Source: Candidatus Bathyarchaeota archaeon
GTDB lineage: Archaea; Thermoproteota; Bathyarchaeia; Bathyarchaeales; Bathycorpusculaceae
Assembly (NCBI GenBank): GCA_963702095.1
Contig: OY969706.1
Span: 2,336,001 to 2,400,000 of the forward strand
Direction: 5' to 3'
Length of the DNA stretch: 64,000 nucleotides
Part shown: positions 16,482 through 21,073 of the stretch, one piece after another
How positions within the stretch are numbered: the first letter of the stretch is position 1
Layout of the letters: every line of letters begins with the position of its first letter
Notes under the pieces: generated by a model
What the model saw: the letters and a program-made list of their open reading frames with translations, nothing else
What the model was told of the DNA's origin: nothing
Databases searched by the model: none
Made by a program: the position numbers and the translations under genes

Positions 16482-17345
16482 TTATCTGAGGATCAGAAGC
16501 CGTAACAGGAAAACCAGCGGCACCCATTCACCGTCAACCATTAGGGCAGCTTGCAGTCGGGGGCGGGTAGATTTGAAAAAGTACCAAATTAGCAGGCTTT
16601 CGTAAATAACTCCGAATCCTAAAGTAGGCAGATATTCAGTAAAGATTGCAGTGAATAAGCAGCAGATGAACCAGACGACCAATAAACCGTTGAAGCCTAA
16701 GAGAAGACATTTGGTTTTCTTTTGCCCTAACGCTAAGGGTACAGTTAGTATACCTGATTTGCGGTCACCTTGAATATCGAGGGTGTCAAAAATTATGGTG
16801 TTGACTAGAATTTGGATGAATATATAGATGAAAAGCATGACTTCTTTGTAAAAAGCGATTGATTGTATGGCGGAGGGTAGGAATGCGCCGGTAATGCCCC
16901 AACTTAACGCGACAACAACGCTTTTGACGCCTAAAATTTCTTTTAAACGCGGTATTGATTTGGCTATTTTGATGCTGTATGTGAACCCGATCATTAAAAT
17001 TGCAACTAAGATAAGTAACGCCGTTATACCTGCGGCTATGCCTAAGGCGATGCTTACAATTAAACTAGTCACTGACGGAACAAGGTAATAGAGGGTTTTG
17101 TTAGGGGCAGCCTCTAAGCGATTGATGGCGTCTTCTTTGCTGTCGGTAGCCATGTTTAAGCTGTAAATGGAGAATGTTAAAAAAAAAGCCGCCAAAACCA
17201 AAATCGGCGAAACCTGAATTTCATAGAGGAAGCTTGCAAAAACAAACACTAATGCCCCGTTAAGGGCCAAATAAATTGAGTTGGAGAAAGCTAATTTTAG
17301 GACCTTTGCTAACCAGGCTTTCTCTTTAGGGGTTATTCCAATTAT
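16482..17345 (-). CDS. UbiA-family prenyltransferase; probable ATA start at 17345
   Basis: YSLNMATDSKEDAIN and NTIIFDTLDIQGDRKSGILTVP Asp-rich motifs; multi-TM. Confidence 0.85.
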   Translation of the reverse strand: MIGITPKEKAWLAKVLKLAFSNSIYLALNGALVFVFASFLYEIQVSPILVLAAFFLTFSIYSLNMATDSKEDAINRLEAAPNKTLYYLVPSVTSLIVSIALGIAAGITALLILVAILMIGFTYSIKIAKSIPRLKEILGVKSVVVALSWGITGAFLPSAIQSIAFYKEVMLFIYIFIQILVNTIIFDTLDIQGDRKSGILTVPLALGQKKTKCLLLGFNGLLVVWFICCLFTAIFTEYLPTLGFGVIYESLLIWYFFKSTRPRLQAALMVDGEWVPLVFLLRLLILR

Positions 17346-18127
17346 ACGCTCACCTTTTCCGCTCGTTTTAAGAAGCTTTGGAAAACCTCTTCGCCCCATT
17401 CCAAAGCCCGGGGATCAATCGAAACTAAATCCATAGTGTAATCGTATTGTCCATCTAGATGAAAAAGCCCCAGGGACAATATGCTTTCAGTGGTTGTTAA
17501 CGCGATTTTTATATCATCTAGCAAGTAAAGGTTTAATCGTCCTTCTACCATGAATTTATGGAAAAGCTCCCCTGTACCCGCGGAGATTGCGAATTCGAAG
17601 GTTTTGTTAAAGACTTCCTGGGTAATAATTAGGTCAACTGATCCTCCCACGTTTAAGACTTTTTGGAACAGGCTAACAAAGTCAGGGTGAAAAATCGGTG
17701 AAATACCAGTCACTTTATTGGTGTTTTCCACTATTTTCAAGAAATTATTGTGGACTTTGGATAATTCACTACGTTCGCTTTTCACCACGGATGAGGTTTG
17801 AAGCATACCGATTTTAAGCAGCGAACTGCTGGGTATCTGGTGAATGTCATGGGTTAACCAGAAAGTCTTGAATTTTTCCATGATTTCAGAGGCTCCCAAG
17901 CAGGCGTCACATAGATGTGCTTCAATACACCCGAGGGACGAGAGACTGTAAAACCCAGAATTTTTTGTGGTCAGGTCAAGTTTCTCGAATTCTTTTAGGG
18001 CATGGAGTATGGTTGTTGCGGTGCTGTCGATTTCGTTTTTTAAGTCTGAGAGCTTTTTATCGCCCCCAAGCAGGCTAATTAGAATTTTTTGTTTGAGTTC
18101 CGATCTGATTAATGCTCGGTACTCCAT
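17342..18127 (-). CDS. Archaeal wHTH transcriptional regulator (DUF1724/FilR1-middle-domain type)
   Basis: N-terminal wHTH; FWLTHD...IP, GISPIFHP, LGLF..DG.YD, A.EWGEE. Confidence 0.8.
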   Translation of the reverse strand: MEYRALIRSELKQKILISLLGGDKKLSDLKNEIDSTATTILHALKEFEKLDLTTKNSGFYSLSSLGCIEAHLCDACLGASEIMEKFKTFWLTHDIHQIPSSSLLKIGMLQTSSVVKSERSELSKVHNNFLKIVENTNKVTGISPIFHPDFVSLFQKVLNVGGSVDLIITQEVFNKTFEFAISAGTGELFHKFMVEGRLNLYLLDDIKIALTTTESILSLGLFHLDGQYDYTMDLVSIDPRALEWGEEVFQSFLKRAEKVSV

Positions 18128-18318
18128 AAGTTCCCCCTCAGTTTAGAAATTATTCATTCAATACCATATTTAAGCGTTAAGACAAATAGGCAACTATTGG
18201 ACGCAGGTGAGGTGAGCGGTTTGCCCTCATGTTGATTGCTTTGTTTAGGCAACTTTGCCTAGTTTTGACAAGATTTATATTCTTAATCAACAAATGATGT
18301 AAAGCTAGGAGGCTAAAA

Positions 18319-18546
18319 ATAATTAGCACTAACTTTCCTAAAAAAGGGACTACAATAAAATGCAGCTGCGGATCAGAAATCCCAGTTATACCTAACGCAG
18401 AAGCAGTTGGCAACTTCATAGATGCCCACATTGAAGAGCACCGGAGACAACAACCGGACCCCGCCCAAGGTGAAATCGTAGCCAAAGAAGTCCACGACAA
18501 ACTCTTCAAAGCACTCTTCAAAAAAATTGGCAGTGCCCCAACTTAA
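18319..18546 (+). CDS. 75-aa CxC...HxxxH putative zinc-binding protein with ATA/ATT start (not in ORF track)
   Basis: AGGAGG at 18307..18312, then ATA ATT AGC...; translates (M)ISTNFPKKGTTIKCSCGSEIPVIPNAEAVGNFIDAHIEEHRRQQ...KKIGSAPT*. Confidence 0.65.
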   Translation: MISTNFPKKGTTIKCSCGSEIPVIPNAEAVGNFIDAHIEEHRRQQPDPAQGEIVAKEVHDKLFKALFKKIGSAPT

Positions 18547-18633
18547 CTTTGACCAGCATGAAATGAATGCTCTTCAGATTACGCCTAAAAAAAGATAAGT
18601 TAAGCATAACAGCGCACAGCCACATTCACTCTT

Positions 18634-18822
18634 CTCCCATATTCACATCTCTTTGGTTCCACAGGGAAACATTTATCGCGTGTGAAGAAAAACGCATATC
18701 ACACCCAAACAGACACAGAAAACGGTTGCAACCCCAAAAAACAACCGCCCCATCAAGCAGTTTTGTGAAAATTAAAAGACTCCAAACACCCAATAAAGAG
18801 AGAAAAATAGGGGGACAAGCCC
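18634..18822 (-). repeat. Dispersed intergenic repeat family 2, copy 1
   Basis: Reverse complement aligns colinearly with 30534..30719 (GGGCTT, TCTTTAT, TGGGTGT, GCGGTTGTTTTTT, GTTTTTCT.CACACGCG). Confidence 0.75.
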
Positions 18823-18829
18823 TCGAATC

Positions 18830-18845
18830 CGAAACGCTTATATTT
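18830..18845 (+). promoter_or_regulatory. Putative BRE/TATA promoter of the leader-aro operon
   Basis: CGAAACG-CTTATATT about 35 nt upstream of the leader ATG. Confidence 0.5.
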
Positions 18846-18877
18846 TCTGTGACCTGAGTGATTGCAGGTTCGAAGCA

Positions 18878-18967
18878 ATGACATCAAAAGAAGCCAAAAG
18901 CAGCATCCGCAAATGGCAGTTTCACAGCTTCGACTACGGCTTTTATTATTACGGTTATTTTCCATAA
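18878..18967 (+). CDS. Trp/Phe/Tyr-rich leader peptide of the aromatic amino-acid operon (29 aa)
   Basis: Hand translation MTSKEAKSSIRKWQFHSFDYGFYYYGYFP*; W1 F4 Y5 in the last 17 codons; ends 59 nt before the aspartokinase ATG. Confidence 0.85.
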   Translation: MTSKEAKSSIRKWQFHSFDYGFYYYGYFP

Positions 18968-19005
18968 GCCCAGAACTGACAGATTTTTTGAGATTGGTTC
19001 TGGGC
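18968..19005 (+). promoter_or_regulatory. Putative attenuator hairpin enclosing a T6 tract
   Basis: GCCCAGAAC (18968-76) pairs with GTTCTGGGC (18997-19005); TTTTTT at 18984-89 lies inside. Confidence 0.7.
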
Positions 19006-19026
19006 AGCAAACGGGTGACCTAAAAC

Positions 19027-20271
19027 ATGGCTAAACAACTTCCTAGTCGTAAAATCGTTGTTAAATTCGGCGGATCCAGCCTAGCCGACCACGAACGCAT
19101 GCTAAAAGCAGTCAACTCAGTGGTCACTGAAGCGAAGCGGGGCACAAAAATCGCAGTCGTTGTCTCCGCAATGGGCAAAACCACCGACGTCCTCATGACC
19201 ACAGCAGAAAACACTTCAAACGGCAAACTCCAAAAACACGAACTCGACGACATCCTCTCCATGGGCGAACGCACCAGCGTACGCATCTTCGCCGCCGCAT
19301 TGCGCAACAACGGAGTGGACGCCTGCTACTTCGACCCCACCGACAACCAGTGGCCAATCGTCACCGACGAGGCATTCCAAAACGCCAACCCCAACCTCAA
19401 AGAATGCAACAAAAACATCCATGAATGCATCCTGCCAATCGTCGAAAAAGGAACCATACCCGTCATCGCAGGCTTCGTCGGCAAAACCAAAGACGGCAAA
19501 ATCACCACTTTAGGCAGAGGCGGAAGCGACACTACCGCTTTCCTCTTAGCCGAGGGCATAGGCGCCGACCAAGTCGTCCTCGTCACAGACGCAGACGGCA
19601 TAATGTCGAGTGACCCCAAAATCATCCAAGCACCCAGACGGCTCCAAACCATAGACGTCACCACCTTAGTGGGTTTGGCGGATTCAGGCGCGAAATTCAT
19701 CCATAGCAAAGCACTCAAGTACAAGCCCAAAGACATCGACGTCACAGTCATAAGCAACCAGCATGGCGACTTAAGCCGTGAAGGCACGATAATCACTGGC
19801 GGATTAGCAACAGAGCTTGACGCGGAAATCGCCCACCCCACAGCAGTAGCGGAGATAACTGTGATTGGCAACGGCTTGTCAGCCAACCCGCAGATTATCA
19901 ACCAGATGATTGAAAAAGTCAAAGAAAACACCGTCCTCTTAGGCATGTCGATGAACACTAACTCGATTATCCTCTACGTGCCCCAAACTGAGTCCATCGC
20001 CACATTGTTCAACCAAATCCACCAGATCACAGTCGGCAACAGCGAAACCATCGCGATGGCGGTCAAAAAAGACCTTGTCTTCATCAAAACCAGCGGCGTA
20101 GGCCTAGAAGAAACTCACGGCATCATCGGCAGAATCAGTGAGGATTTACGCCTAAACGGCATAAACATTTCAGGCATCTTAACCATCACGTCGAGTATTC
20201 TGCTTTTTGTAGATTGGAATGAGAAAGAGAAAGCGCTAAAGTTAATTAAAAACGCGCTTAAAACACATTAG
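19027..20271 (+). CDS. lysC: Aspartate kinase (first gene of the aro operon)
   Basis: VVKFGGSS, VVVSAMG.TTD, TTLGRGGSD, C-terminal ACT-like region. Confidence 0.92.
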   Translation: MAKQLPSRKIVVKFGGSSLADHERMLKAVNSVVTEAKRGTKIAVVVSAMGKTTDVLMTTAENTSNGKLQKHELDDILSMGERTSVRIFAAALRNNGVDACYFDPTDNQWPIVTDEAFQNANPNLKECNKNIHECILPIVEKGTIPVIAGFVGKTKDGKITTLGRGGSDTTAFLLAEGIGADQVVLVTDADGIMSSDPKIIQAPRRLQTIDVTTLVGLADSGAKFIHSKALKYKPKDIDVTVISNQHGDLSREGTIITGGLATELDAEIAHPTAVAEITVIGNGLSANPQIINQMIEKVKENTVLLGMSMNTNSIILYVPQTESIATLFNQIHQITVGNSETIAMAVKKDLVFIKTSGVGLEETHGIIGRISEDLRLNGINISGILTITSSILLFVDWNEKEKALKLIKNALKTH

Positions 20272-20282
20272 AGGCAAAAATA

Positions 20283-21073
20283 ATGAACGTCGGCAAAACC
20301 CGCAGACTTAAAAAAATCATGCAGAAAGACAACCGCACAGTCATCGTGCCCATGGACCACGGCGTCACCATCGGACCAGTCCAAGGCATCACAGACATGC
20401 AAAAAATAACCAACCAGCTAATCGAAGGCAAAGTAGACGCCATCTTGGTACACAAGGGCATAGCAAAACGCATTGACGTCGACGGCGCAGGCTTAATCGT
20501 TATGCTCTCAGGCGCCTCAAACCTCGGCCCAAACCCCAACGGCAAAGTCCAAGTTTGCAGCGTAGGAGAAGCCCTCCGCTTAGGCGCCGACGCCGTCAGT
20601 GTACACGTAAACATAGGCGCACAGGACGAGGACAAGATGCTGGCAAACCTGGGCAAAGTCAGCGAAGAATGCGAACACTACGGGTTGCCATTGCTGGCGA
20701 TGATGTATCCAAGGGGCCCAAAATCCAAAACGAACACGACCCTGAAGTGGTGGCACACGCTGCCCGAATCGGCGCTGAACTGGGAGCAGATATAATAAAA
20801 ACCAACTACACAGGCAATATTGAAACTTTTAGGGTAGTTACAGAAAGCTGCCCAGCCCCAGTGGTCATCGCAGGGGGACCAAAATGCAAGTCTCTCCAAG
20901 AAGTGCTCCAAACCACCCACGACGCCCTCCAAGGAGGAGCTGCGGGTCTCTCGATTGGACGCAATGTGTTCCAATGTGAAAACCCAACCCAGATTTCAAG
21001 GGCGCTCTCAGCCATCGTCCATGAAGGCACCTCAATTGAGAAGGCAATGAAAATTCTCGGTGACAAACGTTGA
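20283..21073 (+). CDS. aroA': 2-amino-3,7-dideoxy-D-threo-hept-6-ulosonate synthase; apparent 1-nt frameshift near 20718
   Basis: PMDHG...AMMYPRGP in one frame; [14 protein letters not shown] and GRNVFQ in the next. Confidence 0.88.

Follow-up and report, generated by a model that had tools for sequence, protein, structure and literature searches.

Ahead of the aspartate kinase gene that heads an aromatic amino acid operon in a Candidatus Bathyarchaeota archaeon lies a short open reading frame (ORF) rich in aromatic codons, and the base that follows its stop codon is the first base of a stable hairpin, here called P2. The window analysed is the whole 64,000-nucleotide (nt) stretch of contig OY969706.1 (assembly GCA_963702095.1, positions 2,336,001 to 2,400,000 of the forward strand), and all coordinates are those of the window. 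The arrangement may well be a ribosome-mediated attenuator of the operon, in which folded P2 is the ON state and a ribosome at the leader stop melts P2 to give the OFF state, and we put the probability of this reading at about 0.45. The two parts from which it is built stand on firmer ground. Comparative and thermodynamic evidence, on which every statement about structure in this work rests, argues that P2 is a real RNA structure of the sense strand and is tied to the leader stop, and the small ORF has the characters of a codon-sensing leader, predicted to be translated.

An ortholog of the kinase was found in all 36 genomes of the same genus (61 relatives were examined), in 81 of 201 genomes of the family at E ≤ 1e-100 and in 109 of 301 genomes of the class at E ≤ 1e-80. 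Upstream regions were read at 110 loci within the same order and at 40 outside it but in the same class. For alignment and folding we distinguish group A (78 sequences, 39 from the genus and 39 from other genera), group B (n = 6) and group C (n = 18). A small aromatic-rich ORF ends 44–77 nt before the kinase start at 109 of the 110 order-level loci, and half of the loci from other orders (20/40) have one by a fixed criterion, namely at least six Phe, Tyr or Trp among the last 16 residues and a stop 35–90 nt upstream; related genomes are not independent, and counts such as these overstate the number of evolutionary events. At the remaining order-level locus, L109, there is no aromatic ORF within its 400-nt upstream region.

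In the window the leader has ten Phe, Tyr or Trp codons, nine of them within its last 15 codons. Insertions and deletions within the ORF are multiples of three in the group-A alignment, and the peptide tails of different lineages are unrelated (SFDYGFYYYGYFP; SFGYYFYYYFN; RYFFKYYYY; FSGYWYTFNY; FFDFFYYYFYFE; PYYYYYYYCFF), their sole common trait being an aromatic richness close to the C-terminus. Tails that are specific to each lineage yet share this richness, with gaps that keep the frame, therefore point to a leader that senses codons and not to a functional peptide. The operon makes chorismate and tyrosine and the leader is rich in Tyr and Phe codons in every lineage, so the two follow a cognate logic, and a short ORF rich in end-product codons before the cognate operon is the arrangement of the trpL and pheL type. 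The aromatic codons run close up to the stop, and in the window they come within a single codon of it: at the 39 genus loci the positions −2, −3 and −5 to −8 relative to the stop are aromatic in 82–100%, and in all lineages aromatic codons reach positions −1 to −3 (82–100% of loci in every group).

Among synonymous codons the leader tails favour Tyr and Phe codons ending in U (108 loci; 18914–18961 in the window). In the genus the TAT fraction is 0.63 and the TTT fraction 0.56, against 0.33 and 0.42 in the long ORFs of the genome; in group C the values are 0.84 and 0.74, and TAT ranges from 0.63 to 0.90 across leaders. Two families have small ORFs of another sort before the kinase ortholog. 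In f26 (L193–L198, L232) it is a conserved ORF beginning MGDxLFGDGVY, and in f35 (L204–L207) an ORF reading MGGHLYWH(K/R)PAPETL(I/V)QV that ends 49–61 nt before the kinase ortholog. Neither has an aromatic run, and both may be leaders of a different kind.

The P2 hairpin begins with a perfect stem of 9 base pairs (bp), GCCCAGAAC (18968–76) with GTTCTGGGC (18997–19005), which is extended by U·G, G·U and A–U pairs to 12 bp. The first-pass annotation of this DNA had described such a stem, extendable by G–U pairs and adjoining the leader stop, and its description holds at these coordinates. In isolation P2 has a predicted free energy of −18.7 kcal/mol (z = −3.9), with one of 200 shuffles equally good, and an equally strong hairpin within 5 nt of the stop arose in one of 200 dinucleotide shuffles of the segment from stop to start. 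At 15 representative loci between 0 and 22 of 200 shuffles equalled the native hairpin, in a test that is conservative in that shuffles keep the complementary composition. The P2 palindrome occurs once in the 2.94-Mb genome, and this rules it out as a repeat element.

When P2 is defined as a hairpin of −9 kcal/mol or better in which pairing starts −2 to +5 nt from the end of the stop, it is present at 123 of 128 leader-bearing Bathyarchaeia loci; L054, at which the kinase start is misplaced, is left out of the hairpin counts although it has an aromatic ORF. The five loci that fall short are L083, L087, L209 (at −8.9 kcal/mol), L228 and L230. At 104 of the 123 loci the first paired base lies between −2, within the stop codon itself, and 0, and across loci the median energy is −17.2 kcal/mol and the median outer helix 10 bp. 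P2 lies anywhere from 2 to 21 nt from the Shine-Dalgarno (SD) sequence of the kinase gene, whereas its position relative to the stop stays between −2 and +5.

The stem itself is rebuilt from lineage to lineage, with versions that include GCCCAGGCG/CGTCTGGGC, GCTAAAGCGG/CCGTTTTAGC, GGAGAAACCG/CGGTTTCTCC, GCCGCGACCG/CGGTTGCGGC and AAGCTTCGAGGCC/GGTTTCGAAGCTT, among others. The nine basal pairs, in their 36 different versions, amount to 324 positions, of which 272 are Watson–Crick pairs, 30 G·U, 2 A·C and 20 others. Duplex DNA would give G·T and A·C mismatches alike, so that the excess of G·U over A·C argues for selection on the sense-strand RNA. RNAalifold recovers P2 from the 78 group-A sequences with double changes at three pairs, 97% of the P2 cells in this group are paired, and for the whole named structure 92.6% of cells are paired, against 18.7–56.5% when the partners are slid. 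Covariation across orthologous leaders was the check that the first-pass annotation had proposed for its hairpin, and the lineage-changed stems, with their compensatory changes and with G·U far outnumbering A·C at loci that nearly all retain P2, bear the hairpin out. A search of Rfam 15 with 18500–19200 on both strands at E values up to 10 gave two chance-level matches (E = 5.5 and 9.8), far below gathering scores. Scans of the genome on composition together with a hairpin, on composition within intergenic regions, on stop-abutting hairpins (56 candidates) and on aromatic-dense windows, all crude and made with rough ORF masks in place of gene calls, turned up no convincing second leader of the same kind.

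A second helix, P1, frames the control codons from the other side. Neither P1 nor the promoter figured in the first-pass annotation. The core pairs of P1 are retained in 74–78 of the 78 group-A sequences, with A–U to G·U changes, and this pairing accounts for the conservation of AGCTTCGAC at the nucleotide level. Group C has a helix at the same place but of other sequence, formed by CCAAUAGCCAC (codons 4–7) and GUGGCUAUUGG (the Ser-Gly-Tyr-Trp codons), with 11 predicted pairs and compensatory changes. The conserved order thus begins with P1, followed by the control codons in an unstructured, U-rich run, and then come the stop, P2, a spacer of 2–21 nt, the SD and the start codon. A box similar to the promoter box of the window, AAAGTATAAAT, is present in group C, and from the usual archaeal distance between TATA box and start the transcript would begin at about 18867–18869, with a 5′ untranslated region of about 10 nt. 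As a separate observation, the stop-abutting hairpin of family f14 (L213–L215) is built on AAGCUUCGA.../...UCGAAGCUU, whose core is the same palindromic core as that of P1 in the group of the window (UUCGAAGC/GCUUCGA; 18867–18935 in the window); this could be a coincidence or the trace of a rearrangement between the helices.

Within P2 of the window lies a run of six T. The first-pass annotation had placed this run inside the hairpin and not after it, which is where it stands (18984–89); the sequence directly after P2 is AGCAAACGGGTGA. A run of five or more T inside P2 is found at 30 of 39 genus loci, where shuffled apical sequences give an expectation of 2.0, and at 19 of 39 loci of the other group-A genera (1.8 expected), and the apical U-tract is always preceded by an A-run able to pair with it. 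No group-A locus (0/78) has a run of four or more T after P2. Such runs do occur in group B, where five of the six loci have at least five T after P2, and in some other families; in group C, 11 of 18 loci, and among the P2 loci of other orders 9 of 17, have four or more T inside or after P2. The U-tract inside P2 is a strong feature of its lineage, but it is not universal.

How a U-tract is likely to be read depends on the terminators that the genome uses. An archaeal U-tract terminator has been described as a run of four to seven U, for which no hairpin is required, and the KH domains of aCPSF1 bind U-tracts of the nascent RNA whilst its nuclease cuts downstream (PMC8716108). In the present genome a run of at least five T follows the stop within 80 nt at 643 of 1892 long ORFs, with a concentration at 0–40 nt. 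The 40 nt before these gene-end runs show no extra structure (−4.97 kcal/mol, against −5.74 kcal/mol before T-runs inside genes). Gene-end T-runs that lack upstream structure point to hairpin-less terminators of the archaeal type in this genome, and aCPSF1/FttA is encoded at G000:C1:372655-374538 (TIGR03675, 903 bits against a cut-off of 580). The premise of the first-pass annotation, that archaea terminate transcription at U-tracts (intrinsically or by aCPSF1/FttA) and not by a hairpin plus U, therefore holds in this genome. The locus has the U-run (T6) of such a terminator and the genome has the factor; a G+C-rich hairpin followed by a U-run, as in trpL, is not found in the window.

The geometry of P2 relative to a ribosome on the leader is what suggests a switch. 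With the distance of 15–16 nt between P-site and 3′ edge measured in Haloferax (PMC7261190), a ribosome with the stop codon in its A site masks 9–10 nt beyond the stop, which matches the median outer helix of 10 bp. In folds constrained by such a footprint the probability that P2 forms is about 1.0 with codon −10 or −6 in the A site, 0.83 with codon −3 and 0 with the stop codon. The first-pass annotation had supposed that a ribosome reaching the stop would block the hairpin whilst one stalled upstream would leave it formed, and the constrained folds behave in this way.

Beyond these observations, what we infer is the sign of the switch, its co-transcriptional timing, its effector, the transcript start site, the translation of the leader and its coupling to transcription. 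P2 would be the only switchable element, its state set by the position of the leader ribosome and not by a terminator/antiterminator pair. When Tyr or Phe is scarce a ribosome would stall at least four codons before the stop, leaving the 5′ arm free, and P2 would fold once its 3′ arm had been made. Folded P2 would lock the intercistronic RNA, with the U-tract paired to the A-run at the top of the hairpin, and the polymerase would then reach the kinase gene and a new ribosome would load there (ON). When charged tRNA is ample, the ribosome at the stop would cover some 9–10 nt of the 5′ arm and P2 could not fold. The U-tract and 3′ arm would remain single-stranded behind an uncoupled polymerase, and U-tract-dependent termination or cleavage by aCPSF1/FttA, or the action of another single-strand-specific nuclease, would lower expression (OFF). 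Three considerations favour this sign. Five to eight hungry codons lie in the path of a starved ribosome before it touches P2, so that P2 should form while the polymerase advances. A biosynthetic operon must rise when Tyr and Phe are short, and folded P2 must then be the ON state. Finally, the archaeal readers of RNA, which are aCPSF1/FttA, single-strand nucleases and U-tract termination, act on unstructured RNA, and this fits P2 as the ON state. The fuller version of the proposal, namely that archaeal attenuation does without a terminator hairpin and works through a single stop-abutting anti-terminator hairpin which hides U-rich RNA from aCPSF1/FttA, and whose folding is blocked by a ribosome at the stop, is more tentative, and we hold it to be possible rather than probable.

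Several points weigh against the proposed attenuator. The U-tract inside P2 is typical of one family-level group, and the hiding of a U-tract is not then a universal principle; where a lineage lacks one, something besides a U-tract must serve as effector. P2 is followed by the T-run in group B and in certain other families; there the two together look like a bacterial-type terminator, and a review notes that bacterial-type terminators of hairpin plus U can work with archaeal polymerase (PMC13675443). Aromatic codons stand at positions −1 to −3, and stalling on them would bring the ribosome into the base of P2 and open it, which sits awkwardly with P2 as the ON state. Ahead of a starved ribosome the U-rich codons would be naked as well and could attract aCPSF1. 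A ribosome at the stop is transient, so that the same kinetic assumption is needed as for the trp attenuator, and the coupling of transcription to translation is described as poorly documented in archaea (PMC13681488). Moreover, the polymerase would pass T6 before the 3′ arm exists, and P2 should therefore be unable to regulate intrinsic termination on the first pass; it could affect only factor-dependent events after the polymerase has gone by.

The first-pass annotation had proposed that the 3′ arm of P2 could pair instead, weakly, with CGGGTGACC, which holds the SD, and that a ribosome at the stop might thereby occlude it. Where the SD of the window stands, relatives have GGGTG, GGATGG, GGGGG or GGAGG. 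Accessibility was assessed by footprint-constrained folding at 95 loci and by a shuffled-arm control at 116 loci. In the free fold of the window RNA the SD is unpaired with a probability of only 0.06, the SD region GGGUGACC (19013–20) being paired with the leader codons GGUUAUUU (18953–60) in a helix that is not conserved; the probability is 0.46 with a ribosome at the stop and 0.77 with one at codon −6. Over the genus the means are 0.35 free, 0.36 at the stop and 0.38 at codon −6, and of the loci at which a ribosome at the stop changes the value by more than 0.05, 13 go up and 13 go down. The other group-A genera give 0.36, 0.41 and 0.36 for the same three states, group C goes from 0.45 free to 0.39 at the stop, and the only clear fall is in group B (0.22 to 0.04, n = 6). 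With the 5′ arm deleted, none of the six groups shows the 3′ arm masking the SD more effectively than shuffled versions of that arm (observed and control means 0.50/0.50, 0.60/0.61, 0.26/0.34, 0.31/0.33, 0.47/0.48 and 0.40/0.41). The competing pairing of the 3′ arm is not seen in the fold of the window RNA, inconsistent across loci and equal to shuffles, and was abandoned; occlusion by a ribosome at the stop went the same way, as the genus values hardly differ and the SD of the window opens instead.

Alternative helices fare little better. The first-pass annotation had noted that GGCTT within the control codons is complementary to AAGCC at two other places. The 5-mers are present as it described, but the matches are 5 bp long, at chance level and not conserved; GGCTT occurs only with the codons TAC-GGC-TTT, in place of which many relatives have TAC-TAC-TTT. 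The only consensus helices predicted by RNAalifold are P2 in the 78 group-A sequences and P1 and P2 in the 18 group-C sequences, and no mutually exclusive terminator and antiterminator helices were predicted in either group. By eye, the strands of P1 match the arms of P2 and the ribosome-binding site over 4–5 bp only, and P2 persists in folds that place a ribosome on the control codons. Nor does the SD lie within a hairpin that a ribosome would open, as in leaders of the ermC and cat type, since it stands 7 nt outside P2.

These results bear directly on other explanations of the same arrangement. One is translational control, in which the freed 3′ arm or the last leader codons would pair with the SD, and the position of the leader ribosome would set how open the SD is. 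The pairing of the SD with GGUUAUUU in the window and its release from 0.06 to 0.77 at codon −6, the lower accessibility in group B with a ribosome at the stop, and the constant proximity of P2 to the SD (2–21 nt) would all suit it; however, the effect is not conserved in the genus or the other group-A genera, it runs in the opposite direction in group C, the 3′ arm does no better than its shuffles, and the SD lies outside P2, so that we regard this explanation as highly improbable. A hairpin that no ribosome reads, whether a DNA operator, a protein-binding RNA hairpin or an mRNA-stabilising stem-loop, with its adjacency to the stop incidental, seems to us very unlikely. It would be in keeping with the perfect inverted repeat, with the FilR1-like helix-turn-helix gene that lies divergently upstream and with the control of aromatic operons by a protein activator in another archaeon (PMC6737238). 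Against it, the 30 G·U and 2 A·C pairs speak for sense-strand RNA and not duplex DNA, stems and loops are unrelated between lineages and hence offer no common motif for recognition by a protein, and it is the distance to the stop that is fixed (123/128 loci) while that to the SD varies.

P2 might also be the OFF element, a terminator-like or pause hairpin acting together with a following U-run where there is one. A ribosome held at the final aromatic codons (−1 to −3) would melt it by direct occlusion, in the manner of pyrBI or pyrE, and no antiterminator would be involved. A ribosome at these positions, which are aromatic in 82–100% of loci in every group, reaches 0–8 nt into P2; in group B and some families a long perfect stem is followed by T5 and then by the SD; and at bacterial-like terminators an archaeal polymerase can terminate more readily when a hairpin is present (PMC13675443). 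The difficulty lies in the sign. The five to eight hungry codons before −3 would let the hairpin form in starvation and shut the operon when it is needed, and a ribosome at the stop under replete conditions would melt P2 better still, which is the wrong direction for a biosynthetic operon. There is, in addition, no T-run after P2 in the window or its family-level group, and the terminators of this genome are without hairpins, and on balance such a hairpin is distinctly unlikely. An explanation that we judge unlikely gives P2 a static part. P1 and P2 would insulate the U-rich control codons at either end, with P2 doing no more than tying up the free RNA from the stop to the ribosome-binding site that follows; a ribosome parked on the aromatic run would hide that run from aCPSF1 and nucleases (ON), and under replete conditions fast ribosomes would leave it bare, so that the transcript is cut or terminated (OFF). 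This gives the right sign without alternative structure, and it suits the lineages that have no U-tract near P2, since none is required. It is consistent with a run of control codons that reaches the stop and lies directly between P1 and P2 in two groups whose helix sequences are unrelated, with the preference for U-ending codons (TAT 0.63–0.90, genome 0.33) and with the position of P2 near both stop and SD in all lineages. On the other hand, structural work describes FttA as taking RNA straight from the exit channel of the polymerase (PMC11616081), for which a distant upstream window is not an obvious entry; the U-ending preference may reflect the use of rare codons, as in bacterial leaders; and neither the start of P2 within 0–5 nt of the stop nor the T-run conserved inside P2 across the genus is explained.

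The features of the locus, which include a promoter-like box upstream of P1 and the genes that follow the leader, are collected in the table.

Table. Features of the leader region and operon, in window coordinates
Feature	Coordinates	Strand	Remarks and basis
BRE/TATA-like promoter box CCGAAACGCTTATATTTT	18829..18846	+	near-invariant in those same-genus loci whose aligned sequence extends to it (29 of 30; L010 cut short)
P1, 5′ strand GGUUCGAAGC	18867..18876	+	predicted transcript 5′ end; ends 1 nt before leader AUG; minimum free energy (MFE) fold
Leader ORF, 29 codons, MTSKEAKSSIRKWQFHSFDYGFYYYGYFP	18878..18967	+	TAA at 18965-67; ORF reading; predicted translated
P1, 3′ strand GCUUCGACU	18927..18935	+	Ser17-Phe18-Asp19 codons, opening the aromatic run; MFE fold
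Dense control-codon run, Phe18 to Phe28	18929..18961	+	U-rich; predicted unstructured; between P1 and P2
P2 hairpin	18968..19005	+	5′ arm 18968-18979, apical part 18980-18993, 3′ arm 18994-19005; fold, alignment
T6 (U-tract)	18984..18989	+	apical in P2; partly pairing with the preceding A-rich stretch
SD of kinase gene, GGGUGA	19013..19018	+	7 nt after P2, 8 nt before AUG; fits 16S 3′ end ...GGAUCACCUCCU
Aspartate kinase with ACT domains, first operon gene	19027..20271	+	Pfam; NCBIfam NF005159, 387 bits (cut-off 379)
Following genes, in order: ADH synthase, DHQ synthase II, DHQ dehydratase, shikimate dehydrogenase		+	Pfam, NCBIfam, ORFs
Next genes: GHMP-type shikimate kinase, EPSP synthase, chorismate synthase, 86-residue archaeal chorismate mutase		+	Pfam, NCBIfam
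Last genes: aminotransferase, prephenate dehydrogenase	to about 29148	+	

By Pfam and NCBIfam the operon holds the archaeal chorismate route and the tyrosine branch, and the leading aspartate kinase presumably furnishes the aspartate semialdehyde that the chorismate route uses. A complete kinase with ACT domains heads the aromatic operon in 109 of the 301 Bathyarchaeia genomes sampled, and weaker matches to the kinase protein are found elsewhere in the genome of the window; the copy in the operon may serve the ADH route in particular, as a dedicated supply of aspartate semialdehyde under aromatic regulation. The ADH synthase gene, second in the operon, lies in two frames (20283–20795 and 20555–21073, within 20283–21073) whose products match positions 1–153 and 143–255 of TIGR01949, with a change of frame near an A-rich stretch at about 20700–20760; this may be an assembly indel or a genuine frameshift.

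Upstream of the leader, on the minus strand, is the divergent FilR1-like gene (17342–18127), with an N-terminal domain of the HVO_A0261 type, and the 750-nt gap between it and the leader (18128–18877) holds only an ORF of 114 residues that matches no family. The FilR1-like protein may regulate the same operon. Three small-RNA runs of soil metatranscriptome, from one study and from related organisms, each had a word share of 0.09 with the locus. Their contigs placed on 18700–20300 covered only 20206–20300 and a 32-nt piece at 18720–51, and are uninformative on expression of the leader. They start at 20229, just within the 3′ end of the kinase gene, and extend to the ADH synthase gene. An internal start or a processing site may lie near 20229, although contigs of this kind cannot show ends.

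If the proposed attenuator is correct, it would be the first gene-specific control of factor-dependent termination in Archaea to be gated by translation, and it would extend across many families of Bathyarchaeia. It would place regulation after initiation in a domain where known control acts at the promoter: the recruitment of polymerase and initiation factors was described in 2021 as the only known regulatory target in archaeal transcription (PMC8448881). A full-text literature search found no archaeal leader-peptide attenuator, although the Term-seq tables of two studies (PMC8716108, PMC10450193) might contain 5′-proximal termination sites that bear on this negative. Neither ‘attenuat’ nor ‘leader peptide’ occurs in a review from 2026 that treats termination signals across all domains (PMC13675443). 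The covarying module of leader and hairpin in some 120 genomes would serve as a test system for the coupling of ribosome and polymerase in archaea, and for whether RNA structure gates aCPSF1/FttA. For annotation, a small ORF and two RNA helices before a central biosynthetic operon have been missed by gene callers.

It is instructive to compare the element with systems that are better understood. TrpY is a DNA-binding regulator of archaeal aromatic amino acid genes, and another protein regulator of such genes is Tar (TK0271) of Thermococcus kodakarensis (PMC6737238). Both act on the same pathway in the same domain of life, but by binding DNA at promoters, whilst here the proposed parts are a translated leader and the RNA structure that lies beyond the promoter. 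There is a likeness to termination by U-tract and aCPSF1/FttA, as the T6 resembles the runs at gene ends, aCPSF1 is encoded and its KH domains need the U-tract (PMC8716108; PMC11616081). Such terminators have been described at the ends of genes and operons or at constitutive internal sites (PMC10450193), and the literature consulted on aCPSF1/FttA termination contains none that a hairpin conceals under the control of a leader ribosome.

Bacterial systems offer parallels in design. In pyrBI and pyrE of E. coli, coupling-type attenuators sense UTP through the speed of the polymerase, and the hairpin is a true terminator. As here, there is a single hairpin near the end of an upstream ORF, whose folding is blocked by a ribosome near the stop; unlike them, the sensor in the window would be the speed of the ribosome at aromatic codons, and a terminator hairpin would give the wrong sign. 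In tnaC-tnaA a ribosome at the leader stop gates the access of Rho, and with this operon our element shares the decisive position, the leader stop, and an output that would be factor-dependent termination in the spacer. In tna, however, the stalled ribosome blocks the factor site and so gives the ON state, in response to free tryptophan that the nascent peptide senses, as in the stalling on TnaC studied in E. coli (PMC8429421); here the peptide is not conserved, tRNA charging would be the signal and a ribosome at the stop would make the factor site accessible.

The ribosome-mediated attenuators of E. coli, such as trpL, pheL-pheA and hisL, likewise have a short ORF rich in end-product codons before the cognate operon, with control codons near the stop, and in these too the position of the ribosome sets the structure of the RNA beside the stop; P1 overlaps the beginning of the control codons, a place occupied in trp by segment 1:2. 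Unlike these attenuators, the element has no mutually exclusive terminator and antiterminator, its U-run lies inside the hairpin and not after it, its host is an archaeon with hairpin-less terminators, and its sign is likely to be reversed, the hairpin being the ON state. The element thus looks like a leader-peptide attenuator in the way it would work, yet it lacks two classical features, the alternative helices and the U-run after the hairpin, and would, if the proposal holds, show that attenuation can be designed without a hairpin-dependent terminator on a eukaryote-like transcription machine.

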